Part shown: positions 1-10,521 of the stretch, one piece after another
How positions within the stretch are numbered: position 1 is the first letter of the stretch
Layout of the letters: every line of letters starts with the position of its first letter
Source of the DNA: a virus
Strand: one strand, 5' to 3'
Virus genome (UHGV): UHGV-0062500
DNA length: 10,521 bases
The notes under the pieces: generated by a model
What the model was told of the DNA's origin: nothing
Database searches by the model: none
What the model saw: the letters and a program-made list of their open reading frames with translations, nothing else
Translations under genes and position numbers: made by a program

Positions 1-142
1 TTTTGGCAATGTGTTTAGACACAATACCAGCCATAAGGTCCCGTTGAGTTGGAAAAACACGAGAATCTTTATTAGCATTCTCGTTCAAAAGGTCTTTATT
101 AGTTTTATGAATCAATCCTTCAATTTCTTTTTCAATTGTCAT
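1..142 (-). CDS. nrdD: Anaerobic (class III) ribonucleoside-triphosphate reductase NrdD, N-terminal 47 codons; gene continues beyond window start
   Basis: Minus-strand ATG at 142-140 overlaps the gene 49 stop (ATGA). Translation MTIEKEIEGLIHKTNKDLLNENANKDSRVFPTQRDLMAGIVSKHIAK is open to the window edge. The LLNENANKDS-V-PTQRDL-AGIV-KH segment matches the conserved NrdD N-terminal region as I recall it, and nrdD lies downstream of 49 in T4. Confidence 0.8.
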   Translation of the reverse strand, partial: MTIEKEIEGLIHKTNKDLLNENANKDSRVFPTQRDLMAGIVSKHIAK

Positions 143-612
143 TTTAAACTCTTTCTAAGCTGCTTCTTAAATGAAGCTATTAATTGTGTTTTAGTGTCAG
201 ATTCATTATATTCAAATCCTCTTTGAAGCATCTCGGCCATCATTTCCTCTTTTCCTAAACGAGAAAATTCCTTTGATTTATCTCCAACGAAGTTAGGGTG
301 AATATTATTTTGGGTGTAATCGGATTTTAAATAAGTAAGTAAATTTTCTAACCATTCAAGATAATCAACACCTTGTCCCTTTAAGCCAGAACGATTAAAT
401 TTATGCTTCATTTGACCTTCTGCGGCATTGCAGAGATTACAAAGCAATCCACGTACCTTTCCTGCTTTTGGTCCATTTAATTCATGGTCATGGTCGAGGT
501 GATTAGCTTGAACGTCAGGATTTAGTTCTCGTTGGCAAATTAAGCATTTACCATTTTGTGCATCATAAAATTTCTGTTTTTCTTCTTTATATAATTTGCC
601 AGTCAATAACAT
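139..612 (-). CDS. 49: Endonuclease VII (Holliday-junction resolvase), 157 aa
   Basis: ATG at 612-610, TGA at 141-139. Protein carries the paired CxxC zinc site (C23/C26 in GKCLICQ, C58/C61 in LLCNLCN) and the HLDHDH block. Sequence recognised from memory as T4 gp49. Confidence 0.9.
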   Translation of the reverse strand: MLLTGKLYKEEKQKFYDAQNGKCLICQRELNPDVQANHLDHDHELNGPKAGKVRGLLCNLCNAAEGQMKHKFNRSGLKGQGVDYLEWLENLLTYLKSDYTQNNIHPNFVGDKSKEFSRLGKEEMMAEMLQRGFEYNESDTKTQLIASFKKQLRKSLK

Positions 613-619
613 AATAAAA

Positions 620-642
620 CCCTTACCTTAAATAGATAAGGG
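620..642 (-). promoter_or_regulatory. RBS-sequestering hairpin in the gene 49 leader
   Basis: Minus-strand RNA CCCUUA-(11-nt loop)-UAAGGG: 6-bp stem, 620-625 paired with 637-642. The 3' stem carries the AAGGG Shine-Dalgarno 7 nt before the ATG. Consistent with the published translational control of T4 gene 49. Confidence 0.55.
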
Positions 643-650
643 TATTTATT
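643..650 (-). promoter_or_regulatory. Candidate T4 late promoter (AATAAATA, 7/8 match to TATAAATA) abutting the hairpin
   Basis: A transcript starting about 6 nt downstream would begin inside the 5' stem and could not form the hairpin. Confidence 0.3.
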
Positions 651-651
651 A

Positions 652-704
652 TTTTCAAGTATTGTAAAACATTCGATGCAATCGTTTATACTGTCGAATC
701 ATCT
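652..704. repeat. 53-nt direct repeat, copy A (about 89% identical to 865-917)
   Basis: ttttcaagtatt[g/a]taaaacatt[c/t]gatgcaatcg[t/c]ttata[c/t]tg[t/c]cgaatcat: 47 of 53 positions identical, offset 213 nt. Covers the 3' end and stop of the 58-aa ORF. Confidence 0.8.
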
Positions 705-831
705 TTTTAGTAGGACGAGAATAGGTTCCTACGCAAGTGGTCATATGAGGGTCCGTAGAATGTCCTTTAATAAAAAGTTTCCAAACCTTACCGCCATTTA
801 ACTTTTCAGTATAAACCAATTCGGTTTTCAT
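655..831 (-). CDS. Hypothetical small protein, 58 aa (MKTELVYTEKLNGGKVWKLFIKGHSTDPHMTTCVGTYSRPTKKMIRQYKRLHRMFYNT); possibly T4 49.1-like
   Basis: Not in the ORF track (under 60 aa). ATG at 831-829 with AAGG about 8 nt upstream; TGA at 657-655. Last 15 residues duplicate the C-terminus of the upstream 161-aa protein because of a 53-nt direct repeat. Confidence 0.4.
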   Translation of the reverse strand: MKTELVYTEKLNGGKVWKLFIKGHSTDPHMTTCVGTYSRPTKKMIRQYKRLHRMFYNT

Positions 832-842
832 TAAAATGCCTT

Positions 843-864
843 GTCAGAAAAAGAATTTTGAGTT
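843..864. repeat. 22-nt exact direct repeat gtcagaaaaagaattttgagtt, copy 1 (intergenic, just downstream of the pin stop)
   Basis: Identical to 919-940, offset 76 nt. With the 53-nt repeats it gives the minus-strand arrangement X-Y-X-novel-Y. Confidence 0.8.
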
Positions 865-917
865 TTTTCAAGTATTATAAAACATTTGATGCAATCGCTT
901 ATATTGCCGAATCATTT
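865..917. repeat. 53-nt direct repeat, copy B (3' end and stop codon of pin)
   Basis: Same alignment as copy A; encodes the shared C-terminus MIRQYKRLH(Q/R)MFYNT. Confidence 0.8.
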
Positions 918-1353
918 GGTCAGAAAAAGAATTTTGAGTTTCAAGCCATTCAATATATTCTGCCGCAGCTTGCATCAGGTTACCTTCATAATCATCAATA
1001 TCTTTTTTCAATGCCACTTTAGCTAATGCATATGAAATACGTTCACCTTGAAAAGCGGCTTTAGGCTTCTGAACATCTTGGCTAGTTCTCTCTACAACTT
1101 CCTCGATTTCACCATTTTCAACGGATTCAGTATTCCACAAACACCAATACGTAATTGGCTTATCATAGATGTTAATAATTTTTCCATCAGAAAGTTCAAT
1201 TTCAATAATTCCAGTGTCAGGCTCTATATCATCTTCACATTCTTTTGCAAGTTCACGAACTTTAAAGACAGTACCTGCACTAAGTTCCGGCCAGTAATTA
1301 CACAGCCCTGTATCAGCACGATTAATTCTAAACCACTTATCTACTGTAATCAT
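868..1353 (-). CDS. pin: Probable PinA (Lon protease inhibitor), 161 aa
   Basis: Track ORF 868..1371 starts on TTG; the first ATG (1353-1351, MITVDKWF...) is preceded by GGAG and gives 161 aa, the size I recall for T4 PinA. Position between 49 and nrdC matches the T4 map. Assignment is by length and position, not by remembered sequence. Confidence 0.55.
   Translation of the reverse strand: MITVDKWFRINRADTGLCNYWPELSAGTVFKVRELAKECEDDIEPDTGIIEIELSDGKIINIYDKPITYWCLWNTESVENGEIEEVVERTSQDVQKPKAAFQGERISYALAKVALKKDIDDYEGNLMQAAAEYIEWLETQNSFSDQMIRQYKRLHQMFYNT
919..940. repeat. 22-nt exact direct repeat, copy 2 (inside the pin coding sequence, encoding ETQNSFSD)
   Basis: Exact match to 843-864. Confidence 0.8.
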
Positions 1354-1504
1354 GTCCCATCTCCATATCAATTAAGTCATTTATCGTTGGTTCATTATAT
1401 ACTGTTTCTTCATCAGTGTAAACCGGTTCTTCCGGCTCTGGCTCTACAGTTTCCCATCTAGCCGCCCACCAAGGTTTAACCCCGAAGCTTATTAAGTTCT
1501 TCAT
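1337..1504 (-). CDS. Hypothetical acidic small protein, 55 aa (MKNLISFGVKPWWAARWETVEPEPEEPVYTDEETVYNEPTINDLIDMEMGHDYSR)
   Basis: ATG at 1504-1502, TAA at 1339-1337; the 3' end overlaps the pin start by 17 nt. Not in the ORF track. Overlaps the next candidate by 29 nt in another frame, so one of the two may be spurious. Confidence 0.3.
   Translation of the reverse strand: MKNLISFGVKPWWAARWETVEPEPEEPVYTDEETVYNEPTINDLIDMEMGHDYSR
1394..1422 (-). promoter_or_regulatory. Sigma70-type early promoter upstream of pin
   Basis: Minus strand gGTTTACA-17 nt-TATAAT: -35 at 1422-1417, -10 at 1399-1394, about 40 nt upstream of the pin ATG. Confidence 0.5.
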
Positions 1505-1646
1505 AATCAATCCAGGATTCTAATCCTGATGGCAAATCAGATTCAATTTCCCAAAGAAGCTCTTCAATTTTCTGAAGACGATCTAGTTCTTCGGCTGGAA
1601 TAGTAACCATTGACGGAGCTCGTGATACATTAATATCGTAAATCAT
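1476..1646 (-). CDS. Hypothetical small protein, 56 aa (MIYDINVSRAPSMVTIPAEELDRLQKIEELLWEIESDLPSGLESWIDYEELNKLRG)
   Basis: Track ORF 1476..1733 starts on GTG and overlaps the 77-aa gene for about 100 nt. I shortened it to the internal ATG at 1646-1644, which has only a weak GGGT upstream; an alternative ATG lies at 1610-1608. TAA at 1478-1476. Confidence 0.3.
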   Translation of the reverse strand: MIYDINVSRAPSMVTIPAEELDRLQKIEELLWEIESDLPSGLESWIDYEELNKLRG

Positions 1647-1863
1647 ATTTACCCAATTTAACCATACAATCGCCGTATTTCCACTTAGAAATAGACTTTT
1701 CACCATTAGAATAATAAACTTCGAGTTTAGCACGATTATTTTTAATTTGAATAACCTTGGCTGTCATCAAAGTTCCATACCCATAATAAACTGCAACTTC
1801 ATCACCTACATATACCGCGCTTCCGCGGTAATCATGAATATAGTCAGTTCCTTCGAGCATCAT
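1630..1863 (-). CDS. Hypothetical protein, 77 aa
   Basis: ATG at 1863-1861 overlaps the nrdC stop (ATGA coupling); TAA at 1632-1630. Uninterrupted 77-codon frame. Confidence 0.6.
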   Translation of the reverse strand: MMLEGTDYIHDYRGSAVYVGDEVAVYYGYGTLMTAKVIQIKNNRAKLEVYYSNGEKSISKWKYGDCMVKLGKYDLRY

Positions 1864-2123
1864 TTAAAATATTCTCGCAGTTGGTCAAATCCACCAATAT
1901 GACTTCCATCAGGAGCAAATACCTGAGGCATTGTTAAGCCGATTTGAGTATCACGACCTAGTTTAGTCAGAAGCTCAGCAATTTTCTCATCATCAAAAAC
2001 ACCTTTTTCCGGCATAATGTTGATAAATTCAAACGGCTGTTTCTTCACAGTCAAGAGACGTTTTGCATTATCGCAATACACGCATTTGTGGATGTTGCTA
2101 TCATAACCATATACTTTAAACAT
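1860..2123 (-). CDS. nrdC: Phage glutaredoxin/thioredoxin, 87 aa
   Basis: ATG at 2123-2121 with AAGGA 5 nt upstream; TGA at 1862-1860. Active-site CVYC (C14..C17) in MFKVYGYDSNIHKCVYCDNAKRLL...; recognised from memory as T4 NrdC. Confidence 0.9.
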   Translation of the reverse strand: MFKVYGYDSNIHKCVYCDNAKRLLTVKKQPFEFINIMPEKGVFDDEKIAELLTKLGRDTQIGLTMPQVFAPDGSHIGGFDQLREYFK

Positions 2124-2124
2124 A

Positions 2125-2367
2125 TTATTCCTTAATTCCTAATACTTGTTTAAAAGTCTCGTCGTAATCAAGACTTTGGCCCGTTTGTTCTTTATGTTTG
2201 TATATAATATCACTTACTTCTGATAGCATATTTTTATATGAACGAGTTAAAGCAGATTTAAGCACGCTGTATCTATCAGGAAATTTACCATGTTCATTAT
2301 AATAAGCTATTGCTAATTCACGGACTGCCTTTTCAGCAGTCTCCATATATTCTTTACGCTTGGTCAT
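2125..2367 (-). CDS. Hypothetical protein, about 80 aa ([51 protein letters not shown]...)
   Basis: Track ORF 2125..2508 starts on TTG and overlaps the upstream gene. I re-called the start at ATG 2367-2365, 14 nt before the upstream TAA; an alternative ATG is at 2346-2344. TAA at 2127-2125 sits 1 nt before the nrdC ATG. Confidence 0.45.
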
Positions 2368-2668
2368 TTTCTTCTCGGTCAAATCGGTGTTTACAATGGC
2401 GACATTTATAACGAAGATTACTAGTCTGCCAATGGACCAATTGCACCTGTTCAGTTCCACATTCAGGGCAATTAGGAACGTTTTTAGAAGCACGTTCGCG
2501 GCGTTCAACCATGACCATTACAGAATCCCAATTAATAGGGCTGCTATAATCATCACAACCATGAATCTTTCTACGCATTTCCAAATCGTCTTCTTCACCG
2601 GCCATAATAATTTTAATTAAACTGGAATTACTTGAAGCTGCAATGTCTTCTAATAAACGCTTTTTCAT
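2354..2668 (-). CDS. Small zinc-ribbon protein, 104 aa
   Basis: ATG at 2668-2666 overlaps the upstream TGA (ATGA) and has GAGGT 7 nt upstream. Contains CPECG...(17 aa)...CRHCKH, a C4 zinc-ribbon signature. N-terminal half is acidic. Confidence 0.6.
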
Positions 2669-3591
2669 TTCAATACCTCAATAGCATTACGTAAACCATT
2701 TGCTTTTGCATTAAGAGCTTTTAACAATTTGGTGTGTTCTGCAATTTGGGCTTCAACTTCAGTCAAACGGGCATTGAGATATTCACGTTCTTCACTCAGA
2801 TTATCAACCTTTTCTACTTTAGGCTCTTTTACAACTGTCTTATATGTATTAGGGTTCTTCAGTTTAATTAGAATGCGTGAACTGTATAACATTGAACCAT
2901 TATCTTCGGTTTCGTCATACATTTCCACTACGTCCATAATTTTTAACATCATGCGGAGTTTATAAGACAACGAACGAATAGTTTTGTTGTGCTTATTAAT
3001 TTCTTTAGCTGTCATGGTGCCGAGATTACGTGAGTAGTAATAAGGAACCTGGATATTAATTAATACTGATGAACCACCTGGCTTGTGTGTTACTTCATCA
3101 GCAATAACCCAATCCTTAACATGAACTGTATTTGTACGGTCATCGCCCGCGGTAAATAGTTTACGAGCATGCTTAAAAAGCATATTCACTTGGTCATTGA
3201 ATTGACAAGCGAATTTATCAGCAAATTTAGTTTCAGGAATGGTAGATAACCAATCAGCCAAATGGGTCTTTTTAACATCGTTAACAATAGTAAATTCAAC
3301 CAAATCAGTTATAGATGTCGCAGATTTAATGAAGCTCGGCTTCATAAAGTTTTTAATGTTATCACGAGCTACAGTAGAAGATAACATACGAGAACGTTTA
3401 AACCATTCAAGCAAATTGCCCAACGAATGAGAATAAGCGTTTTGAGTATCTTTACAGATATGATTTTCCTGGCCAACATATTGAAGGAAATCACGAAGAA
3501 TATTATTAATTACTGCTCTGTGTCCGATCTGATAATTGCGGTGTTTAGTAATAAGACTGTCAAAATAATCAATATAATGTTTACGAGTCAT
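2665..3591 (-). CDS. Hypothetical protein, 308 aa, with C-terminal coiled-coil tail; paralog of the upstream 340-aa protein
   Basis: Track ORF starts on TTG at 3642 and runs through a promoter. The real start is ATG 3591-3589, with a perfect GAGGAG 6 nt upstream. Shares LQYVGQ / EWFKRSR / MDVV blocks with the 340-aa neighbour. Confidence 0.7.
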   Translation of the reverse strand: MTRKHYIDYFDSLITKHRNYQIGHRAVINNILRDFLQYVGQENHICKDTQNAYSHSLGNLLEWFKRSRMLSSTVARDNIKNFMKPSFIKSATSITDLVEFTIVNDVKKTHLADWLSTIPETKFADKFACQFNDQVNMLFKHARKLFTAGDDRTNTVHVKDWVIADEVTHKPGGSSVLINIQVPYYYSRNLGTMTAKEINKHNKTIRSLSYKLRMMLKIMDVVEMYDETEDNGSMLYSSRILIKLKNPNTYKTVVKEPKVEKVDNLSEEREYLNARLTEVEAQIAEHTKLLKALNAKANGLRNAIEVLK

Positions 3592-3619
3592 ATTAATCTC
3601 CTCAGTAGAAAGTAAGAAC

Positions 3620-3649
3620 ATTATACCACATCCTTGTGGCAAAGTAAAC
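3620..3649 (-). promoter_or_regulatory. Sigma70-type early promoter upstream of the 308-aa gene
   Basis: Minus strand GTTTACT-17/18 nt-TATAAT: -35 at 3649-3643, -10 at 3625-3620, followed by the GAGGAG SD and the ATG at 3591. Confidence 0.55.
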
Positions 3650-4671
3650 TAGTTCAGTGCATTTAGTGCATTGTTCAGTTTAGAACGTTGCTTTGTCAGA
3701 TTTTGAACCCTTGACTGAGCTTGTTCTAACGCCTTTTCAGCTTCTAGCACTTCATTGGTCGCTTTAACGAGTTCATCATCTACTGCCTTAAGAGACTTCT
3801 CAATCGCGTCAGCGTGCCATTTTTCTACAGGTTTAAAATTTGAATTTTCAGTAGGAAGAAAACTCACTTTATTAAGTTTACATGCATCTATATTGCTTGA
3901 GCTATACATCCAAAATTTAGGATCGTTTGATAAGTAATTAGATAAATTTAAGTTATCTTGCAATTCCTGCTTTTTCTCTCGCGGGACTTCGTCCTTTCTC
4001 AAAAAATCGTATTTAAATGAAACGATCATATCAAGTTCATATGATGTTGTATCTAACTTAAATCGTTCAAAACGAGGTAAAATCTTAGATTGAACAGCAG
4101 CAACAACATCCATATACTTAAATGCTTCTGTCAGCTGTGATTTAAGACATTCACAAATTGAAAGAGAATTTTTAGTATTAGGCTTAAAGCTAATTCGTGC
4201 AGTTCTATTATTTTCTTTTAACGGTCTTACTTCCATCTGAAGAGTATAACCATCAAATTTCAGGTTCTTTAAGTTAATATCAGAGCCTTTTAATCGACTA
4301 GCAGTAGACAAAATTTGCTTTAATTGTTTACGGAATAGAGCAATAAATCTCCATTCAATACGATAATGATTTGGATTGAAAAATCCAGATGATAAATCGA
4401 CCTTACTTTGACCAACGCCTTGAACAATCAAAGGATTTTTATAATCAATAGTTTTACAGAAATCGGTGAGCTGTTCACGAGCAGTCATTTGTGTAATATA
4501 CCCTGCTTTACTAAAATTACGCACCCATTCACTGCTATTCGTATACTTAAAGTGATGAATAACACGATTAACTTTATCAGGGTCTAAATTATTTTCACAC
4601 AAAAATGTCATAACATCACGAGTATAGCTGGCATTACGAACCATATCTTCAATTTGAGAACGAGTTTTCAT
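3649..4671 (-). CDS. Hypothetical protein, 340 aa, with C-terminal coiled-coil tail
   Basis: ATG at 4671-4669 with AAGGA 5 nt upstream, overlapping the upstream TAA; TAG at 3651-3649. C-terminal 50 aa (LVKATNEVLEAEKALEQAQSRVQNLTKQRSKLNNALNALN) has a heptad-like pattern. Confidence 0.75.
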   Translation of the reverse strand: MKTRSQIEDMVRNASYTRDVMTFLCENNLDPDKVNRVIHHFKYTNSSEWVRNFSKAGYITQMTAREQLTDFCKTIDYKNPLIVQGVGQSKVDLSSGFFNPNHYRIEWRFIALFRKQLKQILSTASRLKGSDINLKNLKFDGYTLQMEVRPLKENNRTARISFKPNTKNSLSICECLKSQLTEAFKYMDVVAAVQSKILPRFERFKLDTTSYELDMIVSFKYDFLRKDEVPREKKQELQDNLNLSNYLSNDPKFWMYSSSNIDACKLNKVSFLPTENSNFKPVEKWHADAIEKSLKAVDDELVKATNEVLEAEKALEQAQSRVQNLTKQRSKLNNALNALN

Positions 4672-4679
4672 GGTGTTCC

Positions 4680-5567
4680 TTAAGATTTAAGTAAATCAAC
4701 GATTTTAATTAATTTTTCACGCTCAGATTTAGCTTTACTACTCAATCCAGATAGTCTGAAAATTTCATCATCATATTGCTGAATAGAAATATTTAGCTCT
4801 TCAATCTGCTTATTAAAATAAGCAATTTGTTCAGAATGTTTTTCATTACTACGAACTGGTACAGGTTTTGTAGGCAATTTAGTTGAACTGGATTCATCCG
4901 GGCGATAAATTAAAATACAACTTGAACCAATCGGACATTTAGCACCAGACACATATTCTAATGTTCCAGCTTCTTTTAAAATTTCAAAAGCTAAACAAAG
5001 ATGATGACCCATATTGGCATAATCTGTAGAGTGAGCTCTGACGTAATAATCATCTCCACGAATACTAAATTTAAAGCATTTAAGGTCTTCTGTATTATTG
5101 GTCTTAAAAATCATTTGTTTATCTAGACCTTTAGCTAATCGAGCGCCTAATGCTAATAATCGTCGTTGATTTTCCCACAAATCAGCAATCATTTGATCGA
5201 ATGACAATTTCGGCATTAGTCTACCATAAAGGTCATATCCTTTATTATAATTGCGAAGAATTTCACTCGCGTTAATACGAGACAACGCTCCAATTTTATT
5301 AAGGGCTTTCATGATGCGATTAGATAAACCCATTCCAGACCCGTTTGTTCGTTGTAAATGTTTATCTAATCCAAATCCAATATCAACTTTAAACTTATCT
5401 AATATTTCAGCATGAACATCTCTGTCAATAACATTCAAATCCAAAGTTGGGTTAAATCTATGAAAAAATTTATCTGGCTCTCCACGACGAAGTACAGTCC
5501 ATTCATTCAATTTTTTATTAACTAAAGATTTAATTACTGCATTGACATTATTAATTACTACTGACAT
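4680..5567 (-). CDS. Hypothetical protein, 295 aa, with C-terminal helical tail
   Basis: Track start is TTG at 5588. The first ATG (5567-5565, MSVVINNV...) has GAGGA 4 nt upstream and lies 8 nt after the upstream TGA. TAA at 4682-4680. Confidence 0.7.
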   Translation of the reverse strand: MSVVINNVNAVIKSLVNKKLNEWTVLRRGEPDKFFHRFNPTLDLNVIDRDVHAEILDKFKVDIGFGLDKHLQRTNGSGMGLSNRIMKALNKIGALSRINASEILRNYNKGYDLYGRLMPKLSFDQMIADLWENQRRLLALGARLAKGLDKQMIFKTNNTEDLKCFKFSIRGDDYYVRAHSTDYANMGHHLCLAFEILKEAGTLEYVSGAKCPIGSSCILIYRPDESSSTKLPTKPVPVRSNEKHSEQIAYFNKQIEELNISIQQYDDEIFRLSGLSSKAKSEREKLIKIVDLLKS

Positions 5568-5574
5568 ATTTTCC

Positions 5575-5982
5575 TCACTCAATTTCAATTTTACTAAATA
5601 TACAGAATAAGATGGAACAGACTATATAAGCACCACACACAGATTGAACTAATACCATTCCAAAGAACCAAACAATATTATCAAACAATGTCTGTTTTAC
5701 GTCGAAAGGACGTAAACTTACAGTAATATTATCGCCTTTTTCTATTGATGAATACATCTCTGGTGAAATATATTCGCTAAATCTATAACCGTCTTTGAGT
5801 TCATATACAGCAATAAACGATAAACTAGACCCCTTTCCTTGAGTTCCTGTAAGGGTATTAACTACAGTAACATCATAATCTTTATAATGCATATAATCAT
5901 TAATTGCGTAATAACCATATGCAACTACTACGCATAAACAACATATCAATAAATTCAATCTTTTAATTATCAACTGTTTCAT
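5575..5982 (-). CDS. Predicted membrane protein, 135 aa (N-terminal signal-anchor, C-terminal transmembrane helix)
   Basis: ATG at 5982-5980. Hydrophobic stretches LNLLICCLCVVVAYGYY (N-terminal) and IVWFFGMVLVQSVCGAYIVCSILFCIF (C-terminal) flank a polar domain of about 70 aa. Preceded by a middle-promoter-like sequence. Confidence 0.65.
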   Translation of the reverse strand: MKQLIIKRLNLLICCLCVVVAYGYYAINDYMHYKDYDVTVVNTLTGTQGKGSSLSFIAVYELKDGYRFSEYISPEMYSSIEKGDNITVSLRPFDVKQTLFDNIVWFFGMVLVQSVCGAYIVCSILFCIFSKIEIE

Positions 5983-6011
5983 AATAATCTCAATTAAAAG
6001 GGCTTAGAACC

Positions 6012-6036
6012 ATTATACCATCCTTGGTATAAAGCG
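6012..6036 (-). promoter_or_regulatory. Candidate MotA-dependent middle promoter upstream of the 135-aa membrane-protein gene
   Basis: Minus strand cGCTTTA (6/7 match to the TGCTTtA MotA box) - 12 nt - TATAAT (6017-6012). No acceptable -35 hexamer at 17 nt spacing. Confidence 0.35.
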
Positions 6037-6037
6037 G

Positions 6038-6565
6038 TTATGCGAGTACCGTCTTTAACCGTTCTTCAAACTTCCGAAGAGTATTTTGGCGTTCAGCTCT
6101 TTGCTTTTTGTAAGTTTCAATACGCTCTGAAATGAGAGTGTATCGTTCATTTACTGATTCTTTCATAAAATCAGGAATTTCACGAGAAGCTTTAATCTCA
6201 TCAAATTTATCAATAACAGCTTGCTCTTCAGCAATTAAGTTATCATACATTAAAATATCTTTCTTGATGAACTCAATATCTTCTTGAGTTACACGAGATA
6301 ATTTAGATGCTTTATCCTTTTTGTACTGTTCGTTAGTATCACGAGACCAGTGTAATGTACGATTTTTATTCGTATTCTTGTAAATTTCTACAATACCGAT
6401 CTCATCAATAATAACGATCCAATTCCAACGGGATTTGTAAATTTGTCCTCCATCAACAGTGATTTCACCTCCGATTGAGATGTCATTAAAGAACTTGCTT
6501 TGCGCTTCAGATTTAAATTTACCATCATTGTAATTTACCAGGTTGAAAATATCTTTAGCGTTCAT
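6038..6565 (-). CDS. Hypothetical protein, 175 aa
   Basis: Track start is TTG at 6625, inside the promoter. The real start is ATG 6565-6563 with GGAGG 8 nt upstream, located just downstream of an early promoter. TAA at 6040-6038. Confidence 0.7.
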   Translation of the reverse strand: MNAKDIFNLVNYNDGKFKSEAQSKFFNDISIGGEITVDGGQIYKSRWNWIVIIDEIGIVEIYKNTNKNRTLHWSRDTNEQYKKDKASKLSRVTQEDIEFIKKDILMYDNLIAEEQAVIDKFDEIKASREIPDFMKESVNERYTLISERIETYKKQRAERQNTLRKFEERLKTVLA

Positions 6566-6593
6566 TTTGTATTCCTCCGTAGTTGATAGTTGT

Positions 6594-6622
6594 ATAGTAC
6601 CACAGAGGAACGGTCTTGTAAA
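6594..6622 (-). promoter_or_regulatory. Sigma70-type early promoter upstream of the 175-aa gene
   Basis: Minus strand aGTTGTTTACAa-17 nt-TGgTACTAT (extended -10): -35 at 6622-6617, -10 at 6599-6594. The flanking 24-nt and 12-nt blocks are identical to the promoter at 8729-8757. Confidence 0.6.
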
Positions 6623-6625
6623 CAA

Positions 6626-6928
6626 CTAAAAGAAACTTCTTTCACAATTTTTTCCACTGAACCAGGCGCTCACTGCTTTCTTAGTCTCAGGAGCAGTGTT
6701 ATCCATAAACCATTCAAAGGCAGCCTTTTTATGATTCTGGAGGGCTTCTCGGGCTTTAATCTGCTCACGGTCTATTAACACTAACATATGAGCCTTTCTT
6801 GTCACCAGGGGCTTTTTATGATTTTTTGAATATTCCCAATCATTTGTCCATCGCATCGTTGTTGCGAATTGAAGTACAGCTTCTTTAATCTTAGTTTCGT
6901 AAATTTCACGAGCCTTTGAGTATAACAT
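6626..6928 (-). CDS. Hypothetical protein, about 100 aa
   Basis: ATG at 6928-6926 is preceded by GGAGG (spacing 5); the track ATG at 6940 has no SD. TAG at 6628-6626. Confidence 0.6.
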   Translation of the reverse strand: MLYSKAREIYETKIKEAVLQFATTMRWTNDWEYSKNHKKPLVTRKAHMLVLIDREQIKAREALQNHKKAAFEWFMDNTAPETKKAVSAWFSGKNCERSFF

Positions 6929-7010
6929 CACTACCTCCATTTACCGGTTTAATTCTAGTCATCTTTTTAATGGCAGTCCATATAATCTATTTCTGAACTT
7001 CCTTTTTGTC

Positions 7011-7729
7011 TTAGGATTCTTCTAAATGTCTTTTCTGAAAAGTTGATACCATACTACGATACGGTTCATTTGGATATCCGTGTTTTATAGCTTCCTTTGT
7101 AAATTTTCTCCATCCATATTTAGTTTCTTTCCAAAGCTCGAATAATTCATCTTCATACTGCCATATAGTTAAATGAGAACGCTTTGCAGCTTTAATTCCA
7201 TTAATATGCTTTTCTTTTACTGTAGGATTACTTAGTTTCTTTTTAATAATATTACTAACTTTTCTAACAAAAACTGGGTCCTTATATCGTTGCGAAGTTT
7301 TTATTGAAGTGTTTAATTTAGCTTCCGGCGTGGATGTGACCTCTTTCATCTTTTTCTTCATATGTTGTATATGATTAGGATTTTTCCATAAATTTATAGA
7401 ATGCTTTTTGCATTTTATCCTAGTTTCATCTGCAACCTTTCCTCCTTCACCCCCGTATGACAGGTTAACACAGTTTTTTCCATATTTCAATTTACCTGCC
7501 ATGATATATAATATTTCAGCTTGTACCATTTTATCATAATTATCAAAAACTTCTAAAACCGTTTTTGATAATATGTGGTCATTTGACACTTTTACACGTT
7601 CTATATAATTTCCACTACCAACATACGAATCATTGATGTTATTAGTTATATGTCGACCATAATAGTATTTCTTAATACCTGTCTTTAAATTTAATATTTC
7701 AGTTTTATAGATAGTAAAATATTTTTCAT
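7011..7729 (-). pseudogene. Seg-like GIY-YIG homing endonuclease, about 239 codons, disrupted by a 1-nt frameshift at an A5 run immediately after the start codon
   Basis: ATG at 7729-7727 overlaps the ATPase stop (ATGA) but that frame stops after 12 codons. The adjacent frame is open for 46 codons (7730-7590) with no ATG/GTG/TTG and joins the 192-aa track ORF. With six instead of five A at 7726-7722 the protein would read MKKYFTIYKTEILNLKTGIKKYYYGRHITNNINDSYVGSGNYIERVKVSNDH..., GIY-YIG-like and alignable to I-TevI NNKVYVGSAKDFEKRWKRH. The C-terminal half has repeated NUMOD-like basic motifs. Locally AT-rich, with no SD before the GTG at 7589. Confidence 0.45.
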
Positions 7730-8694
7730 TTTAATAATACCGTTTCAGCAATTTCTTCCCAACCGTTTTTGTCGGTCATAATAAAGTCAGCAAGATAAAG
7801 CGCAGTACGCAGTGAAACATTGCGTAAACGATTAACATTGACTTTCATCCATGATAATGCTTTATAAGTTTCTTCATCAGAAAGACCGCGCTTTTGCATC
7901 ATGTCAGTTGAAAGAATAACATCTTCAACCCTGACCATAATTTCTTCATTAGTGTGAACACCCAAATCCAAATAAACTGAGCGGGACACTAATGCTTGTA
8001 AATGTGGAGCAAGTTTAGTACCACGGTCTAATTCGCGGTCAATGTCAACGTTTGTGATAAAAACAATCGTTCCTTTAAATTCAAACTCACGCTCAATGCC
8101 TTTTTCTTCTAAGTAAGAAGATGCAGTGCTCCAGCAGACTTTACGGGTCTCTCCAGTGTCCAGAGCAGCTTTCAGAAGATTAAGAATGTCCATATCAGAG
8201 AAAACATCCACATCATCAATCAAAAGGACAGAATTCTCTTCACGATTATTCCAAAGCTGCTCATAAAGACCGATACCAGAGATTTTACCATTAATGCTTT
8301 TATACTCAATGTATCCAATATCATTTGCTTTATTTAAAGCTTTATCTAAAGAATACGTTTTACCAATGCCTGCTGCTCCTGAGATAATTAATGAACGAAT
8401 GTTTCCGTTAATAATACCATTCGTCATCATTCCCATAACATTAAATCTTTTATTAATGCGGGTTTTCATATCTTCATATGATTCTTTAACTTCTTCAACT
8501 TTTACACCATCATATGAAATGTCTGATTTGTAAACCCAAACACCGCGACGCTTACCGTCAATTTCAACAAAAACTTTACCATCTCCTTGCGCATCTACCG
8601 GAGCATTATCTGGGAACCATTCGCCTAAGAGCTCAAAAGTTCCAGAGATTTCTTTACCGAAGTAAATACCCTTATTGATAGTTACAGTTTTCAT
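7726..8694 (-). CDS. P-loop (AAA+-like) ATPase, 322 aa
   Basis: Track ORF starts at 8811 and reads through a terminator and promoter. The real start is ATG 8694-8692 with GGAG 7 nt upstream. Walker A ISGAAGIGKTYS, Walker B VLLIDDVD, sensor-1-like FITNVD; about 100-aa N-terminal domain before the P-loop. Confidence 0.8.
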   Translation of the reverse strand: MKTVTINKGIYFGKEISGTFELLGEWFPDNAPVDAQGDGKVFVEIDGKRRGVWVYKSDISYDGVKVEEVKESYEDMKTRINKRFNVMGMMTNGIINGNIRSLIISGAAGIGKTYSLDKALNKANDIGYIEYKSINGKISGIGLYEQLWNNREENSVLLIDDVDVFSDMDILNLLKAALDTGETRKVCWSTASSYLEEKGIEREFEFKGTIVFITNVDIDRELDRGTKLAPHLQALVSRSVYLDLGVHTNEEIMVRVEDVILSTDMMQKRGLSDEETYKALSWMKVNVNRLRNVSLRTALYLADFIMTDKNGWEEIAETVLLK

Positions 8695-8728
8695 TTTATT
8701 CTCCAAATCCGTATCAGTTGATAGTTGT

Positions 8729-8757
8729 ATAGTACCATAAAGCTTTATGCTTGTAAA
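8729..8757 (-). promoter_or_regulatory. Sigma70-type early promoter upstream of the ATPase gene
   Basis: Minus strand TTTACA (8757-8752) - 17 nt - TGgTACTAT (8734-8729), with an A/T-rich block upstream. Sits just downstream of the terminator, followed by the GGAG SD and ATG at 8694. Confidence 0.6.
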
Positions 8758-8777
8758 CAACTTTGTGAAAAATTTTT

Positions 8778-8806
8778 GAAATAAAAAGGGAGCCCGAAGG
8801 CTCCCT
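8778..8806 (-). terminator. Rho-independent terminator after the nucleotidyltransferase gene
   Basis: Minus-strand RNA GGGAGCC-UUCG-GGCUCCC (7-bp GC-rich stem, UUCG tetraloop) followed by UUUUUAUUUC, starting 2 nt after the TGA at 8810-8808. Confidence 0.8.
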
Positions 8807-8807
8807 A

Positions 8808-9821
8808 TCATTTATAATAACTTCGATGGTTTTCAAGATAGACCTTCTCAAGGAAGTCATCCCAGAAACTCATGTCTACTTTTTGTTGCATACCGTTCTT
8901 AGAAGCTTCAGTAGATGCTGCTTCTACTTGATCGACCACATCTTCCAAAAACTCTTGGACTGTTTTAAATGGATGTTTACCCAACTTCACGTCGAGAATA
9001 AATGGAGCATCTTGGAGTGGATAAATCAAGTCGCCAGTTTTGTAAATTTCCAATAGTTGAAGTCCACCACGACAAGCATGGCTCAGAGCTTTCCAGTCAA
9101 TACCTTCATTGGCTTCAGCCTTACGAGCACGTTCACCATATTCAGCATCTAATTTGTTCAGTGACTGCTTAAGCTCAATAAGAGAAAGCGTTGTCTGATA
9201 TTTACGACCCAACACAGTGTAGAACGTTTGTGGGCCTGTTTTCTCATGATTATGGAACACCCATTCACAGAATTCGTTTTCTGGAAGACGATGCTTAATA
9301 TCTTCAACTTTAGTGCGACGCTGCTTAATAGAACCATCTTCTTGGTAATCAACCCATTGCTCAGGGATTTGATTAACTACTTTCAATACATCACGTAATG
9401 CAGCCAAACGAGAACCCTTGACACCGTATTTAGAAGCTTGCTTACGGACATATCCTAAATATGATTTCATGTTAGTCGTATAAAAACGAGAACGGTTGTC
9501 TTGAATAAACTTCCACACATCAGGCAAATCAGATTTAACCACTAGTTCAGGTGGAGTGTGAAGCATATCTAATGCTACAGTTTCACCATCTGCTGCTAAT
9601 TTAAAGAAATATTTAAGACTGTATAGTTCATGGTCAATATCATCTTTAGTGTTTTTAGATGATGTGTTGTTAGTGTTTTTACTCATATGCTCTTTAACAT
9701 TTCCGATAAGAATATCGCGAGCAGAAGGAACAAAGATTTCTTTAAAATCTACATCAGATTCTGGGGTAGAAGTTCCATAAAGATGACTACCAAAATAGCT
9801 TTTCATTACTGTTTTCATCAT
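8808..9821 (-). CDS. Predicted Pol-beta-superfamily nucleotidyltransferase, 337 aa
   Basis: ATG at 9821-9819 overlaps the upstream TGA. N-terminal YFGSHLYGTSTPESDVDF is a canonical minimal-NTase motif (G-S-x10-D-x-D), with a candidate third acidic residue in TVALDML. C-terminal about 250 aa is helical. Intrinsic terminator immediately downstream. Confidence 0.75.
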   Translation of the reverse strand: MMKTVMKSYFGSHLYGTSTPESDVDFKEIFVPSARDILIGNVKEHMSKNTNNTSSKNTKDDIDHELYSLKYFFKLAADGETVALDMLHTPPELVVKSDLPDVWKFIQDNRSRFYTTNMKSYLGYVRKQASKYGVKGSRLAALRDVLKVVNQIPEQWVDYQEDGSIKQRRTKVEDIKHRLPENEFCEWVFHNHEKTGPQTFYTVLGRKYQTTLSLIELKQSLNKLDAEYGERARKAEANEGIDWKALSHACRGGLQLLEIYKTGDLIYPLQDAPFILDVKLGKHPFKTVQEFLEDVVDQVEAASTEASKNGMQQKVDMSFWDDFLEKVYLENHRSYYK

Positions 9822-10521
9822 TCAGCCTTATATTCAATAACAGGACATACTTTAGCTTTACGAGCTTTTAAAAATTCAACGATAATCGATTTCTTGGGTT
9901 GAATAGGAGGTAAACCTTTATACGCCCTATCAATATTTTCTACGTGTAAAGCATAATCCTTTTTCCATTTATAATCTTTATATTTTTCATGCAAATGTGC
10001 AGGAATAACAAATGAACCGATAATAAGTAAAACAACCAAAAGCGCAAGTATAAATGCTGATGGAAGAAGAGTCCATAAACTACCGAAAATAAGCCAACGT
10101 TGTAGGCTTTCTGCACAAATAATTGTTAGCCCTACGAGTATAGCACACCCAAAAATAGAAACGAAAAATGTAGGAATGGCAATAGACCAAAAATATGCGC
10201 ATAGTGTCTTAGGTCGTTGCCATTCATCGTTAAACAGTTTGAATAATTTATAGTGCCAAGAGTTTTCATTAATAATCATAATTATCCTTTCATTGAAGGT
10301 GTAACAGTTGTTAATCATAGCTTCAGCTTCTGATTTTGATAATGAAATTTCTCCATTGTTTTGACGAATAGAAATAAAATCCGGATGACGGTCACCACCA
10401 GCTTTTAAAACACACATATAAGTATCAGTTTCACCTTCAATATTTGAAATGATTGAAGCAGTTCCACATGAATGCGGTTTTTGATAAATCAATACAGCTT
10501 TTCTTCCGCCATTTGACTGCT
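9818..10521 (-). CDS. Predicted membrane protein (two transmembrane helices), C-terminal 234 codons; 5' end outside window
   Basis: The track start at 10492 is TTG and the frame is open to the window edge, so the gene is 5'-truncated. Hydrophobic segments YFWSIAIPTFFVSIFGCAILVGLTIICA and LIFGSLWTLLPSAFILALLVVLLIIGSFVI. TGA at 9820-9818 overlaps the NTase ATG. Confidence 0.6.
   Translation of the reverse strand, partial: QSNGGRKAVLIYQKPHSCGTASIISNIEGETDTYMCVLKAGGDRHPDFISIRQNNGEISLSKSEAEAMINNCYTFNERIIMIINENSWHYKLFKLFNDEWQRPKTLCAYFWSIAIPTFFVSIFGCAILVGLTIICAESLQRWLIFGSLWTLLPSAFILALLVVLLIIGSFVIPAHLHEKYKDYKWKKDYALHVENIDRAYKGLPPIQPKKSIIVEFLKARKAKVCPVIEYKAE

Follow-up and report, generated by a model that had tools for sequence, protein, structure and literature searches.

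What does a small early phage protein that carries a zinc ribbon near its C-terminus act upon? The question is raised by a short open reading frame in the 10,521-nucleotide stretch of virus DNA analysed here (UHGV-0062500; the whole stretch is called the window), the product of which had been suggested in a preliminary description to interact with the host RNA polymerase or with nucleic acids. The reading frame is located as follows:

2354..2668, minus strand: coding sequence of nrdC.2 (104 aa plus stop), from the ORF list and the T4 ortholog (NP_049700 / UniProt P39253)

It starts with an ATG at 2668, ends with a TAA at 2354-2356 (minus strand) and is a genuine gene, the ortholog of nrdC.2 of T4-type phages. 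Its product shares 94% amino acid identity with T4 NrdC.2 (NP_049700.1; P39253 / Y04N_BPT4; PHROG 1474) over all 104 residues, the differences being six substitutions (R33G, H36Y, S43P, I45V, S83N and Q103K), and 97% with the copy of RB3. T4 NrdC.2 was placed by tblastn at 2668-2357 of the window, and the PHROG 1474 profile matched residues 1-103 of the window protein with an E-value of 6.4e-44. As in T4, the gene is flanked by nrdC.3 and nrdC.1 within the early region gene 49-nrdC-nrdC.11, and the order nrdC.3-type / nrdC.2 / nrdC.1-nrdC on the early strand was found both in the annotated RB3 and T4 regions and by tblastn of T4 genes. The coding sequence is under selection, with dN/dS values of 0.11-0.42 overall, about 0.07 for the core and about 0.3-0.4 for the linker defined below. 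In T4, the RNAs of nrdC.2 and nrdC.3 belong to the early class, the NrdC.2 protein has been seen in proteomics, and the gene is non-essential, nrdC.1-6 being deletable. In the HIDEN-SEQ preprint (10.1101/2025.11.20.689424), for which the essentiality row and one comparison row of nrdC.2 were considered, the comparison row gives a log2FC of −0.87 with an adjusted p of 1.0 over 20 sites, and the panels neither flag the gene nor report a conditional phenotype for it. A literature search with the UniProt identifiers returned nothing on NrdC.2, and a DruSM1 knockout screen was set aside as not relevant to this protein. Catalogues already list the gene as T4 nrdC.2, and a TFIIS-like hint was published in 2006; its finding is therefore not a discovery.

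Many GenBank records name NrdC.2 a ‘thioredoxin’. This identity was rejected, as no Thioredoxin or Glutaredoxin Pfam match was obtained at E ≤ 1; the true NrdC, at 1860-2123, does match Pfam Glutaredoxin (E 4e-7). The name, as carried by NrdC.1, NrdC.2 and NrdC.3, is an annotation artefact that spread from the name of the neighbour in the absence of homology.

The C4 motif read beforehand near the C-terminus, CPECG-x17-CRHC, corresponds exactly to the ORF sequence. Equivalent to CxxC-x18-CxxC, it ends 12 residues before the C-terminus and takes up four of the five cysteines (positions 38, 67, 70, 89 and 92). The motif is not a product of chance: CxxC-x10-30-CxxC arose in 91 of 2,000,000 random sequences of 104 aa drawn with the local Cys frequency (1.26%) and in 306 of 200,000 shuffles of the protein's own residues, and of the 84 segments of the window that run for at least 40 aa without a stop, only one contains it. 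From homolog alignments and an AlphaFold2 model, the protein was divided into these parts:

2639..2668, minus strand: N-terminal motif, residues 1-10, MK..L.ED(I/L) in T4-like copies (homolog conservation)
2531..2638, minus strand: variable, partly acidic linker, residues 11-46, which holds the non-ribbon Cys38 (alignment, pLDDT, dN/dS)
2483..2530, minus strand: conserved alpha-helix, residues 47-62, with an R56-R57-E58 motif (AlphaFold2, family alignment)
2372..2470, minus strand: C4 zinc ribbon, residues 67-99 (AlphaFold2 strands, family conservation)
2459-2470, minus strand: knuckle 1 of the ribbon, C67-P-E-C70
2393-2404, minus strand: knuckle 2 of the ribbon, K88-C89-R90-H-C92

Residues K2, R4, L5, E7, D8, I9 and A10 of the N-terminal motif are invariant in 23 homologs, and the motif is retained even in copies from which the linker is deleted. 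The linker itself is indel-rich, is occupied by alternative cassettes in the alignment, varies in length between about 0 and 45 residues across loci and has AlphaFold2 pLDDT values below 50 at residues 14-16 and 21-39. Residues 45-100 were modelled with confidence as a helix followed by a ribbon (pLDDT 80-87). By 10-residue block the helix reaches a pLDDT of about 67-84, and the three predicted ribbon strands (75-79, 84-89 and 95-99) reach 84-87, with Q74-V-Q-L77 assigned to the first strand and F96 to the third. Among 143 family sequences, R56, R57 and E58 of the helix are conserved in 83%, 90% and 66%, respectively, whereas in the ribbon conservation amounts to 100% for the cysteines and R90, 99% for Q74 and Q76, 97% for K/R88 and 96% for F/W96. 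The preliminary description had made its ribbon depend on conservation of the cysteines in homologs, and all four ribbon cysteines were kept in 23 of 23 close homologs and in 147 of 147 representatives of the wider family, one of which has a CX4C first knuckle. With two conserved CxxC knuckles and a three-stranded AlphaFold2 sheet, the zinc-ribbon assignment was upheld, and NrdC.2 is predicted to bind Zn(II). The invariant polar residues lie together on one face of the ribbon, to which strand 1 contributes Q74 and Q76, and knuckle 2 K88 and R90.

The protein had also been called acidic, which is true of residues 1-45 only (pI 5.1). The whole of NrdC.2 has a pI of 6.4 and a net charge of −1 (18 D/E versus 17 K/R), and the core is basic, the helix carrying a charge of +1 and the ribbon of +3. 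Throughout the family, the conserved core has a mean charge of +4.2, with a positive value for 94% of members, in contrast to the mostly acidic extensions. Judged from sequence, the functional unit would be the basic helix-plus-ribbon module of about 55 residues and not the acidic N-terminal part. The T4-type protein taken as a whole is near neutral, a point against the nucleic-acid-binding reading given below.

In order to define the kind of ribbon present, profile and structure comparisons were made. No Pfam family scored above its own cutoff for NrdC.2; Pfam, NCBI-style names and the PDB sequence search all yielded nothing but generic zinc ribbons below threshold, so that assignment to a curated family was rejected, and Foldseek returned no PDB match below an E-value of 0.088. 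The fold and profile matches are to generic zinc ribbons only. Using hhalign, with single comparator sequences picked after the fact, the ranking was eL43 (95%), RPC10-N (83%), IS1 InsA (70%), the TFIIS C-ribbon (36%) and NrdR (1.5%).

The top-ranking eL43 (L37Ae; E 5e-8 on a 39-residue fragment, with PDB profile matches at E 0.03) has, like NrdC.2, a C4 ribbon preceded by a basic helix, but it is an archaeal/eukaryotic rRNA-binding ribosomal protein with a shorter hairpin. As the comparison was picked afterwards from the match list, the resemblance is one of generic fold and not of orthology. It does bear on an effect known from T4, in which the delta-tk2 deletion (tk to nrdC.2), ending in nrdC.2, abolishes the RNase E/G-dependent destabilization of host mRNA; a 2010 review left the responsible gene unidentified. 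The basic module, arranged like the helix and ribbon of an rRNA-binding protein, could as an RNA-binding ribbon be the missing factor. However, the deletion removes about 25 genes and the prior is therefore low. Srd has reportedly since been implicated in RNase E stimulation, which counts against NrdC.2, and the literature examined contained no link of NrdC.2 to RNA decay. We regard this role as extremely improbable.

The ribbon of IS1 InsA and of Zn_ribbon_IS1595 (PF12760) is also a C4 ribbon of similar knuckle spacing, CPxC...(Y/W)xCxxC(K/R)xxF, and InsA aligned with NrdC.2 at an hhalign E-value of 4e-5. Zn_ribbon_IS1595 was the commonest Pfam vote in the family (43 of 91 members at E ≤ 0.01, best E 2.5e-6), although on the window protein it scored 17.8-18.9 bits, below the 25.4-bit cutoff, and some members are labelled ‘transposase-like’ by JGI. 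Unlike these proteins, NrdC.2 has neither an HTH nor a DDE transposase domain and no IS context, being a stand-alone protein of 104 aa in a phage operon, and its family is set apart by the QVQL and KCR signature.

A different picture was obtained for NrdR, the N-terminal ribbons of which (E. coli 9fxk/9gex, S. coelicolor 7p37) gave the tightest superpositions and best local backbone fit of all (rmsd 0.9-1.2 Å over 39-40 residues, probability 0.97-0.99). Like NrdC.2, they have basic residues ahead of knuckle 2 and an (R/K)F..E pattern behind it; phage mini-proteins annotated as NrdR-like N-terminal were matched in BFVD at E-values of about 0.01-0.07, and nrdC is situated two genes away. NrdC.2 could on these grounds be an NrdR-like regulator that binds NrdR boxes or disturbs host NrdR, or else a zinc-thiolate redox client of the NrdC glutaredoxin. 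Against this, the hhalign value of 1.5% was obtained with the E. coli NrdR ribbon and indicates no sequence-profile relation, the Foldseek E-values were 0.16 or higher, the linkage to nrdC is lost in distant members, and the ‘thioredoxin’ label is without homology. An ATP-cone gave no Pfam match, the protein ending 12 residues past the ribbon, and no NrdR box, with ACACWATATATWGTGT taken as the consensus, was found in the window with up to three mismatches. Homology to NrdR was rejected on account of the hhalign value and the lack of an ATP-cone and NrdR boxes, and we consider an NrdR-like or redox function the least credible of the roles weighed here.

The preliminary description had suggested a comparison with TFIIS/RpoM-type ribbons and had named host RNA polymerase as a possible target. 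In such a scheme, NrdC.2 would dock on the polymerase, for example at the secondary channel, and tune early transcription. A TFIIS_C match at an E-value of 0.021 was already reported for one of six orthologs in the 2006 publication. The C-ribbons of TFIIS, Rpb9 and RpoM are three-stranded C4 ribbons with a Q-V-Q strand after knuckle 1, as in NrdC.2; in the hhalign alignment with TFIIS (E 4e-4) the QVQ strand and knuckle 2 coincide, Rpb9 (6upy_I) was the top PDB match in Foldseek (E 0.088, probability 0.98), RPA12, RPC10 and RpoM were among the weak PDB sequence matches, and the early timing of the gene would suit such a function. Closer comparison spoke against it. Zn_ribbon_TFIIS (PF01096) reached 11.0 bits on NrdC.2 versus a cutoff of 21 (E 0.4) and fell outside the top 25 Pfam votes of the family, the three of 91 votes for Zn_ribbon_RPB9 (PF02150) going to an N-terminal ribbon model distinct from PF01096. 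The knuckle spacing of 18 is shorter than that of TFIIS-type ribbons, and the invariant, catalytic RSADE acidic hairpin that TFIIS has between strands 1 and 2 is replaced by a HWQTSNLR loop, positions 79-86 being variable in the family. The Rpb9 superposition was poor (rmsd 4.6 Å over 48 columns, TMq 0.31), and ribbons unrelated to RNA polymerase fitted or scored better. Membership in the TFIIS/RpoM/Rpb9 group was rejected on three grounds: a Pfam score under the cutoff, the lack of the acidic hairpin and the poor fit of the superposed structures. We know of no homolog of the TFIIS-binding site in bacteria, and to our knowledge NrdC.2 is not among the known T4 RNAP-binding proteins. Docking on host RNA polymerase is consequently very unlikely in our view.

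The distribution of the module was then considered. The family comprises at least 422 clusters at 50% identity (E ≤ 1e-3), mostly of 55-80 aa and consisting of the core only, and is almost exclusively phage-borne and without a curated family. A degenerate DNA signature of the ribbon had nrdC.2 as its sole match in the window, with 0 expected. Outside the window, it matched 51 viral loci and gave three matches in the 596 Gb of cellular genomes scanned and none in a plasmid collection; a search of the window with Rfam gave no match. In one member the module is fused to the Rep3 replication initiator (WH1+WH2), and a 191-aa Vibrio phage protein bears the module at its C-terminus. In two of seven sampled contexts, divergent members are placed directly after DNA polymerase A within DnaB/PolA/DUF3987 replication modules, a prophage member is found near SSB and AlpA genes, with the SSB gene two genes downstream, and one further member resides among tail genes.

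These contexts, together with the position of the T4 gene in the nrd (dNTP synthesis) region, would be compatible with a replication-associated NrdC.2 that binds ssDNA, origin DNA or a replisome protein and aids replication or nucleotide supply. It should be considered that small host-interaction genes commonly lie downstream of polA in T7-like phages. In most T4-like genomes, moreover, the neighbours of nrdC.2 are accessory and not replisome genes, the member among tail genes does not conform to this role, and T4 nrdC.2 is non-essential, with no fitness cost reported in the HIDEN-SEQ rows considered. A function in replication is accordingly judged improbable.

The immediate surroundings of nrdC.2 in the window contain the following features:

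3620..3648, minus strand: early sigma-70 promoter, GTTTAC-17-TGgTATAAT (promoter scan, 10/12 matches, extended −10 TG)
2665..3591, minus strand: nrdC.3 (308 aa), coupled upstream partner (PHROG 1435; PF26897, precomputed)
2665..2679, minus strand: coupling junction, with the SD sequence GAGG at 2676-2679 in the last nrdC.3 codons (read from sequence)
2125..2367, minus strand: nrdC.1 (80 aa; 100% identity with T4), which shares 14 nt with the 3′ end of nrdC.2 (tblastn)

The T4 early-type promoter upstream of nrdC.3 is predicted to drive nrdC.3-nrdC.2-nrdC.1-nrdC, which, along with the early nrdC.2 mRNA of T4, bears out the early operon that had been proposed from the sequence. The nrdC.3 stop codon TGA (2665-2667) overlaps the nrdC.2 ATG (2666-2668) as ATGA, and the same 4-nt overlap with an upstream gene of 270-377 aa was seen in about 30 related loci. 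In T4-like phages, nrdC.2 is translationally coupled to the last gene of an array of NrdC.3-6 coiled-coil paralogs. Unlike T4, the window has no nrdC.4, and its NrdC.3 is only 60% identical to T4 NrdC.3, compared with 94-100% for the flanking genes. The AlphaFold2 model of NrdC.3 was poor (pLDDT 48.5) and confident only for the helix 266-307. A C-terminal helix that ends in (K/R)L..A(I/L)(E/Q).L(K) is common to partners assigned to different BLAST clusters, whereas hhalign of NrdC.3 with CC31p082, STP4a_082 and NrdC.5 gave no significant homology, so that what would unite the partners in one superfamily is solely their architecture and the C-terminal motif. The N-terminal motif of NrdC.2 and a coiled-coil upstream partner occurred together in 26 loci and were both missing in 13, with three and one discordant loci, an association that is phylogenetically confounded. 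In other phages, genes of unrelated kinds (DNA pol A, DUF3850) lie upstream with overlaps of 1-4 nt, so the coupling is not specific.

Three genes of the same block have experimentally supported counter-defence functions. T4 NrdC.1 is described as a Septu inhibitor in the HIDEN-SEQ preprint (10.1101/2025.11.20.689424), NrdC.5 counters Dsr1, and gp49.2 inhibits OLD. All three resemble NrdC.2 in belonging to the early dispensable block, in their direction of transcription, in their small size and in the lack of known domains, but are unrelated to it in sequence or fold.

This island context argues for NrdC.2 as a protein-binding anti-defence factor or adaptor, the rigid ribbon of which blocks an immunity protein or serves as a structural subunit of NrdC.3-6 and makes no contact with nucleic acid. 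A small, early and non-essential protein would suit this role, as would the translational coupling and the C-terminal helix shared by the partners. The indel-rich linker and the divergence of NrdC.3 among well-conserved neighbours suggest an arms race, and weak Pfam matches to Lar (restriction alleviation) were seen in 3 of 91 members. However, the same part of the protein is conserved across very different hosts and replication contexts, which is unusual for an inhibitor of a single target, and the core is uniformly basic. Furthermore, NrdC.2 itself was outside the gene set tested against OLD, and the HIDEN-SEQ panels, in the rows considered for the gene, report no conditional phenotype (10.1101/2025.11.20.689424). 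We consider a purely protein-binding function somewhat unlikely, although it has to be taken seriously.

The explanation that we favour, albeit tentatively and at less than even odds, is that NrdC.2 is a zinc-stabilized, nucleic-acid-binding accessory module of the host-takeover and counter-defence block, which possibly acts with a partner of the NrdC.3 type. Early in infection, the target of the module would be DNA, RNA or a complex of nucleic acid and protein. In the T4-like lineage, the module would have acquired the N-terminal helix (MK..L.EDI) and the variable acidic linker; its translation there is coupled to that of the last NrdC.3/4/5/6 array gene, and it may associate with the product of that gene. 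The nucleic-acid interactor put forward in the preliminary description would agree with the basic and invariant polar face and the Rep3 fusion, and the best profile matches (eL43, RPC10-N and IS1 InsA) are all RNA- or DNA-binding ribbons. That Q74, Q76 and R90 do not vary among very diverse phages speaks against a sequence-specific reading of DNA; a conserved protein or structural target would account for it just as well. Zinc ribbons mediate protein-protein contacts too.

A more far-reaching version of this explanation, which is speculative and improbable, would make NrdC.2 the shared ribbon subunit of a modular counter-defence system, in which its conserved N-terminal helix docks on the conserved C-terminal helix of whichever NrdC.3/4/5/6 paralog is co-translated, NrdC.5 with its effect on Dsr1 being one of these. 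Through the invariant basic ribbon, the complex would be anchored on nucleic acid or on an immune protein that senses it. In a wider sense, the helix-plus-QVQL/KCR ribbon might be a widespread and hitherto unrecognized phage module that targets a universally conserved nucleic-acid-associated host component.

NrdC.2 is among the few uncharacterized genes of a T-even block in which gp49.2, NrdC.1 and NrdC.5 were recently shown to neutralize bacterial immunity. The unit worth testing is the basic helix-plus-ribbon with its invariant Q-x-Q / K-C-R face, a module that recurs in at least 422 phage clusters, is hardly ever met in cellular genomes or plasmids and, in T4-like phages, is coupled to the NrdC.3-6 array.

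The window belongs to a Tequatrovirus (T4-like) genome and carries gene 49 (endonuclease VII), pin, nrdC and the nrdC.1 to nrdC.11 block, all on the minus strand. The small protein picked out earlier from its cysteine pattern coincides exactly with one open reading frame, nrdC.2, and the early operon setting proposed for it was borne out by a canonical T4 early promoter just upstream of nrdC.3:

2354-2668, minus strand: nrdC.2 ORF, 104 codons
3648-3620, minus strand: T4 early promoter (GTTTAC, 17 nt, TGgTATAAT)

The encoded protein is 94% identical to T4 NrdC.2 (NP_049700.1; UniProt P39253) and 97% identical to its RB3 ortholog, falls into PHROGs family 1474 (E 6e-44; labelled 'unknown function') and is flanked by nrdC.3 and nrdC.1 as in T4 and RB3. 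The genes nrdC.3-nrdC.2-nrdC.1-nrdC follow one another closely: nrdC.3 and nrdC.2 overlap by 4 nt, nrdC.2 and nrdC.1 by 14 nt, and a 1-nt gap precedes nrdC. By tblastn, nrdC.2 matches were found in 1,052 phage records, mostly from phages of Escherichia, Klebsiella, Shigella, Enterobacter, Yersinia, Salmonella and Aeromonas. NrdC.1, NrdC.2 and NrdC.3 (2125-3591, minus strand) are labelled 'thioredoxin' or 'NrdC-like thioredoxin' in many GenBank records and in PHROG 9774; as none of the three shows thioredoxin or glutaredoxin similarity, the label is a name propagated from the adjacent nrdC. The RefSeq entries of RB3 and T4 likewise label gp49.2 'ribonucleotide reductase'.

nrdC.2 is a real, expressed and dispensable gene. 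Time-resolved omics of T4 classed its mRNA as early and detected the protein with 'middle' accumulation kinetics (PMC9697503 supplement). Pairwise dN/dS against homologs was 0.11-0.42 overall, and at moderate divergence ∼0.07 on the helix-ribbon core compared with ∼0.3-0.4 on residues 1-45. In the insertion data listed by a HIDEN-SEQ transposon study, T4 nrdC.2 is given as 'non-essential', with insertions tolerated at 20 of 21 sites, and one conditional comparison row there gives no significant effect; genome-reduced T4 can do without the whole nrdC.1-6 fragment. The T4 deletion delta-tk2, which abolishes host mRNA destabilization, spans tk to nrdC.2, and it is highly improbable that NrdC.2 is the factor responsible.

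The C4 motif reads as first described (N-C67-P-E-C70-G, 17 residues, C89-R-H-C92-K-H) and stops 12 residues short of the C-terminus. Chance is a very poor explanation: two CxxC pairs separated by 10-30 residues arose in 91 of 2 million random sequences of 104 residues generated with the local cysteine frequency, in 0.15% of shuffles of NrdC.2's own residues and in one of 84 stop-free segments of the window. The four ribbon cysteines, on whose conservation the preliminary description hung, are invariant in 23 close homologs and present in 147 of the 147 top representatives of the wider family, one of them with a CX4C first knuckle. The label 'acidic' had to be withdrawn, the pI being 6.4 with 18 acidic and 17 basic residues; only residues 1-45 are acidic, and the helix and ribbon carry net charges of +1 and +3, respectively.

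An AlphaFold2 model built from the 23-sequence alignment was confident for residues 45-100 (block pLDDT 67-87), predicting a helix at 47-62 and then a ribbon of three strands (75-79, 84-89, 95-99), and gave low-confidence helices for the first 40 residues. Foldseek revealed no significant match to this model in the PDB (best E 0.088). The top matches were Rpb9, a/eIF2-beta and the N-terminal ribbon of NrdR, which gave the tightest superposition (0.9-1.2 Å over ∼40 residues). Among predicted viral structures significance was limited to family members, followed by phage mini-proteins labelled NrdR-like, TFIIS-type or Lar (E 0.01-0.1). No Pfam family reached its cutoff, and family members were spread over generic ribbon models (Zn_ribbon_IS1595, 43/91; Zn_ribbon_8, 33/91; more rarely PaaD, DUF7129 and DpnI). 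When calibrated by hhalign against single sequences, the family profile scored 95% with eL43, 83% with the RPC10 N-ribbon, 70% with IS1 InsA, 36% with the TFIIS C-ribbon and 1.5% with NrdR. The likeness is to C4 ribbons generally and singles out no function, and membership is solid for two things only, the T4 NrdC.2 family and the zinc-ribbon fold.

The TFIIS/RpoM, NrdR, IS1595/InsA and thioredoxin groups were each tested, and NrdC.2 lacked defining features of all four. As an object the protein is already known, since the gene has been catalogued for decades and a weak TFIIS_C similarity was reported in 2006 (PMC1524935). That similarity fits the earlier proposal of an RNA polymerase interactor of the TFIIS/RpoM type; with the poor superposition on Rpb9 (4.6 Å, TM 0.31), such a role is very unlikely. 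A link to NrdR or to redox chemistry, suggested by the close NrdR superposition and by the nrdC neighbourhood, is hardly credible given the hhalign result.

An exhaustive profile search of 1.84 billion representatives yielded 422 clusters at E ≤ 1e-3, most of them of 55-80 residues and matching only query positions ∼45-100. This makes the helix and ribbon the conserved unit and the first 45 residues a lineage-specific addition. Beyond the putative zinc ligands, conservation extended to Q74 and Q76 (99%), V/I75 (98%) and L77 (91%) in the ribbon, to R90 (100%), K/R88 (97%) and the aromatic residue 87 (86%) around the second knuckle, to F/W96 (96%), and to R57 (90%) and R56 (83%) in the helix, with a spacer of 16-21 residues (mode 18) between the knuckles. 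The core has a mean charge of +4.2, with a positive value in 94% of members and one of +3 or more in 75%; extensions at either terminus are acidic in most cases. A degenerate DNA signature (C-x3-QVQL-x10-KCRxC) matched once in the window (0 expected), three times only in 596 Gb of bacterial and archaeal genomes and at 51 loci in the viral collection, and a separate tblastn of the core protein against the plasmid collection gave no match. The family is essentially phage-borne, its members being named 'hypothetical', 'transposase-like' or 'thioredoxin' at source.

Beyond the T4-like phages, the ribbon is found in gene modules of early or replication type. Its settings there are a DnaB-Gad2-PolA-ribbon block, a PolA-ribbon-DUF3987 block, a stretch that shares synteny with T4 Y05C and RlaP (nrdC.11) and also contains Ro60, and a prophage block containing SSB, AlpA and integrase; one more copy is surrounded by tail genes. 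A 191-residue Vibrio phage protein has the module as its C-terminal part, and in one protein the module is joined to a Rep3 WH1-WH2 initiator. The settings beside PolA and Rep3 suggest a replication-associated role, which as a special case is unlikely. Three phage contigs from metagenomes (genes at 2300-5186) carry a distant member of the NrdC.2 family directly 3' of the gene for DNA polymerase A, itself preceded by a gene matching Pfam Gad2, named for an anti-Gabija protein; judged by these annotations, this is another case of the ribbon adjoining a putative counter-defence gene.

The 51 viral loci are mostly T4-like in appearance. At ∼30 of them the NrdC.2 homolog starts 1-16 nt inside the 3' end of a same-strand gene encoding 270-377 residues, usually with a 4-nt overlap (ATGA), and the downstream neighbour varies (nrdC.1/nrdC, nrdC.7, others). 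By BLAST, 21 of the upstream partners cluster with NrdC.3, and the remainder form CC31p082-like, STP4a_082-like and NrdC.5-like clusters; NrdC.3 and NrdC.4 are detectable paralogs, and for the other partner types hhalign showed no significant relationship. The C-terminus of almost every partner is a long helix closing with the pattern (K/R)L..A(I/L)(E/Q).L(K), also found in NrdC.5 and NrdC.6 of the window, and confidence in the AlphaFold2 model of NrdC.3 is limited to this helix. The N-terminal motif MK..L.ED(I/L) and such a partner co-occurred at 26 non-redundant loci, with 3 and 1 discordant and 13 having neither. This suggests, short of proof, that the N-terminus of NrdC.2 and the C-terminal helix of the partner are in contact; phylogeny confounds the association, as all motif-bearing copies appear T4-like, and the terminal conservation may in part reflect an embedded Shine-Dalgarno GAGG (2676-2679). 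A third caveat is that unrelated upstream genes elsewhere show short overlaps too: DNA polymerase A in two cases, DUF3850 in another, and a prophage protein of 472 residues.

NrdC.3, NrdC.5 (DUF7235) and NrdC.6 (2665-5567, minus strand) and T4 NrdC.4 all have a predicted terminal coiled-coil helix, in which an L..A(I/L)..L motif recurs in similar form, and have in common an L(K)xM(D/N)VVE-like motif further inside the protein. A single paralog family that has diversified is a possibility; by hhalign the homology is not significant. Inspection by eye of the NrdC.8 translation (6038-6565, minus strand) indicates a C-terminal helix there too, with many charged and leucine residues.

In the T-even block, three genes have been shown experimentally to counter bacterial defence systems. 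[quoted passage not shown] Window NrdC.3 is 60% identical to its T4 counterpart compared with 94-100% for NrdC, NrdC.1, NrdC.2 and NrdC.5, and nrdC.4, 49.2 and 49.3 had no match in the window, a mosaic pattern typical of accessory, fast-turnover loci in an arms race.

Other features of the window were also recorded. A 65-nt direct repeat (638-702/851-915, 83% identity) duplicates the 3' end of pin, an exact 23-nt repeat lies at 843-865/919-941, and the products of pin and of a 58-aa ORF (655-831, minus strand; phrog_3272) have the same C-terminal end, MIRQYKRLH(Q/R)MFYNT. The arrangement suggests that recombination at the repeat introduced a cassette of ∼213 bp carrying a small gene between gene 49 and pin, which in T4 and RB3 are separated by 42 nt only. 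Between nrdC.9 and nrdC.10, a 192-aa ORF (7011-7589, minus strand) matches the PHROG 314 homing-endonuclease profile over its middle part alone (positions 228-423 of 574) and matches no Pfam family. It is probably what remains of such an enzyme after truncation or decay, with the catalytic domain missing. A perfect GC-rich hairpin (8787-8806, AGGGAGCC-ttcg-GGCTCCCT) between nrdC.11 and nrdC.10 has a terminator score on both strands, and no Rfam family reached its gathering threshold anywhere in window 1-10521.

We tentatively favour NrdC.2 as an accessory early protein whose zinc-stabilized basic module would bind nucleic acid or a nucleic-acid-protein complex through a face formed by the invariant Q74/Q76/K88/R90. 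In T4-like phages it would be made stoichiometrically with an NrdC.3-type coiled-coil protein, the two probably acting together in a counter-defence and host-takeover programme. The main alternative, a purely protein-binding inhibitor or adaptor, would suit the coupling to the partner, sits less easily with the conserved basic core and is somewhat less likely. A small zinc-ribbon early protein will not surprise the specialist; what is added is the delineation of a conserved basic module with its signature, breadth and phage restriction, its coupling to the NrdC.3-6 array, and correction of the 'acidic' and 'thioredoxin' labels. Its position in a validated anti-defence island makes NrdC.2 a sensible and cheap experimental target.
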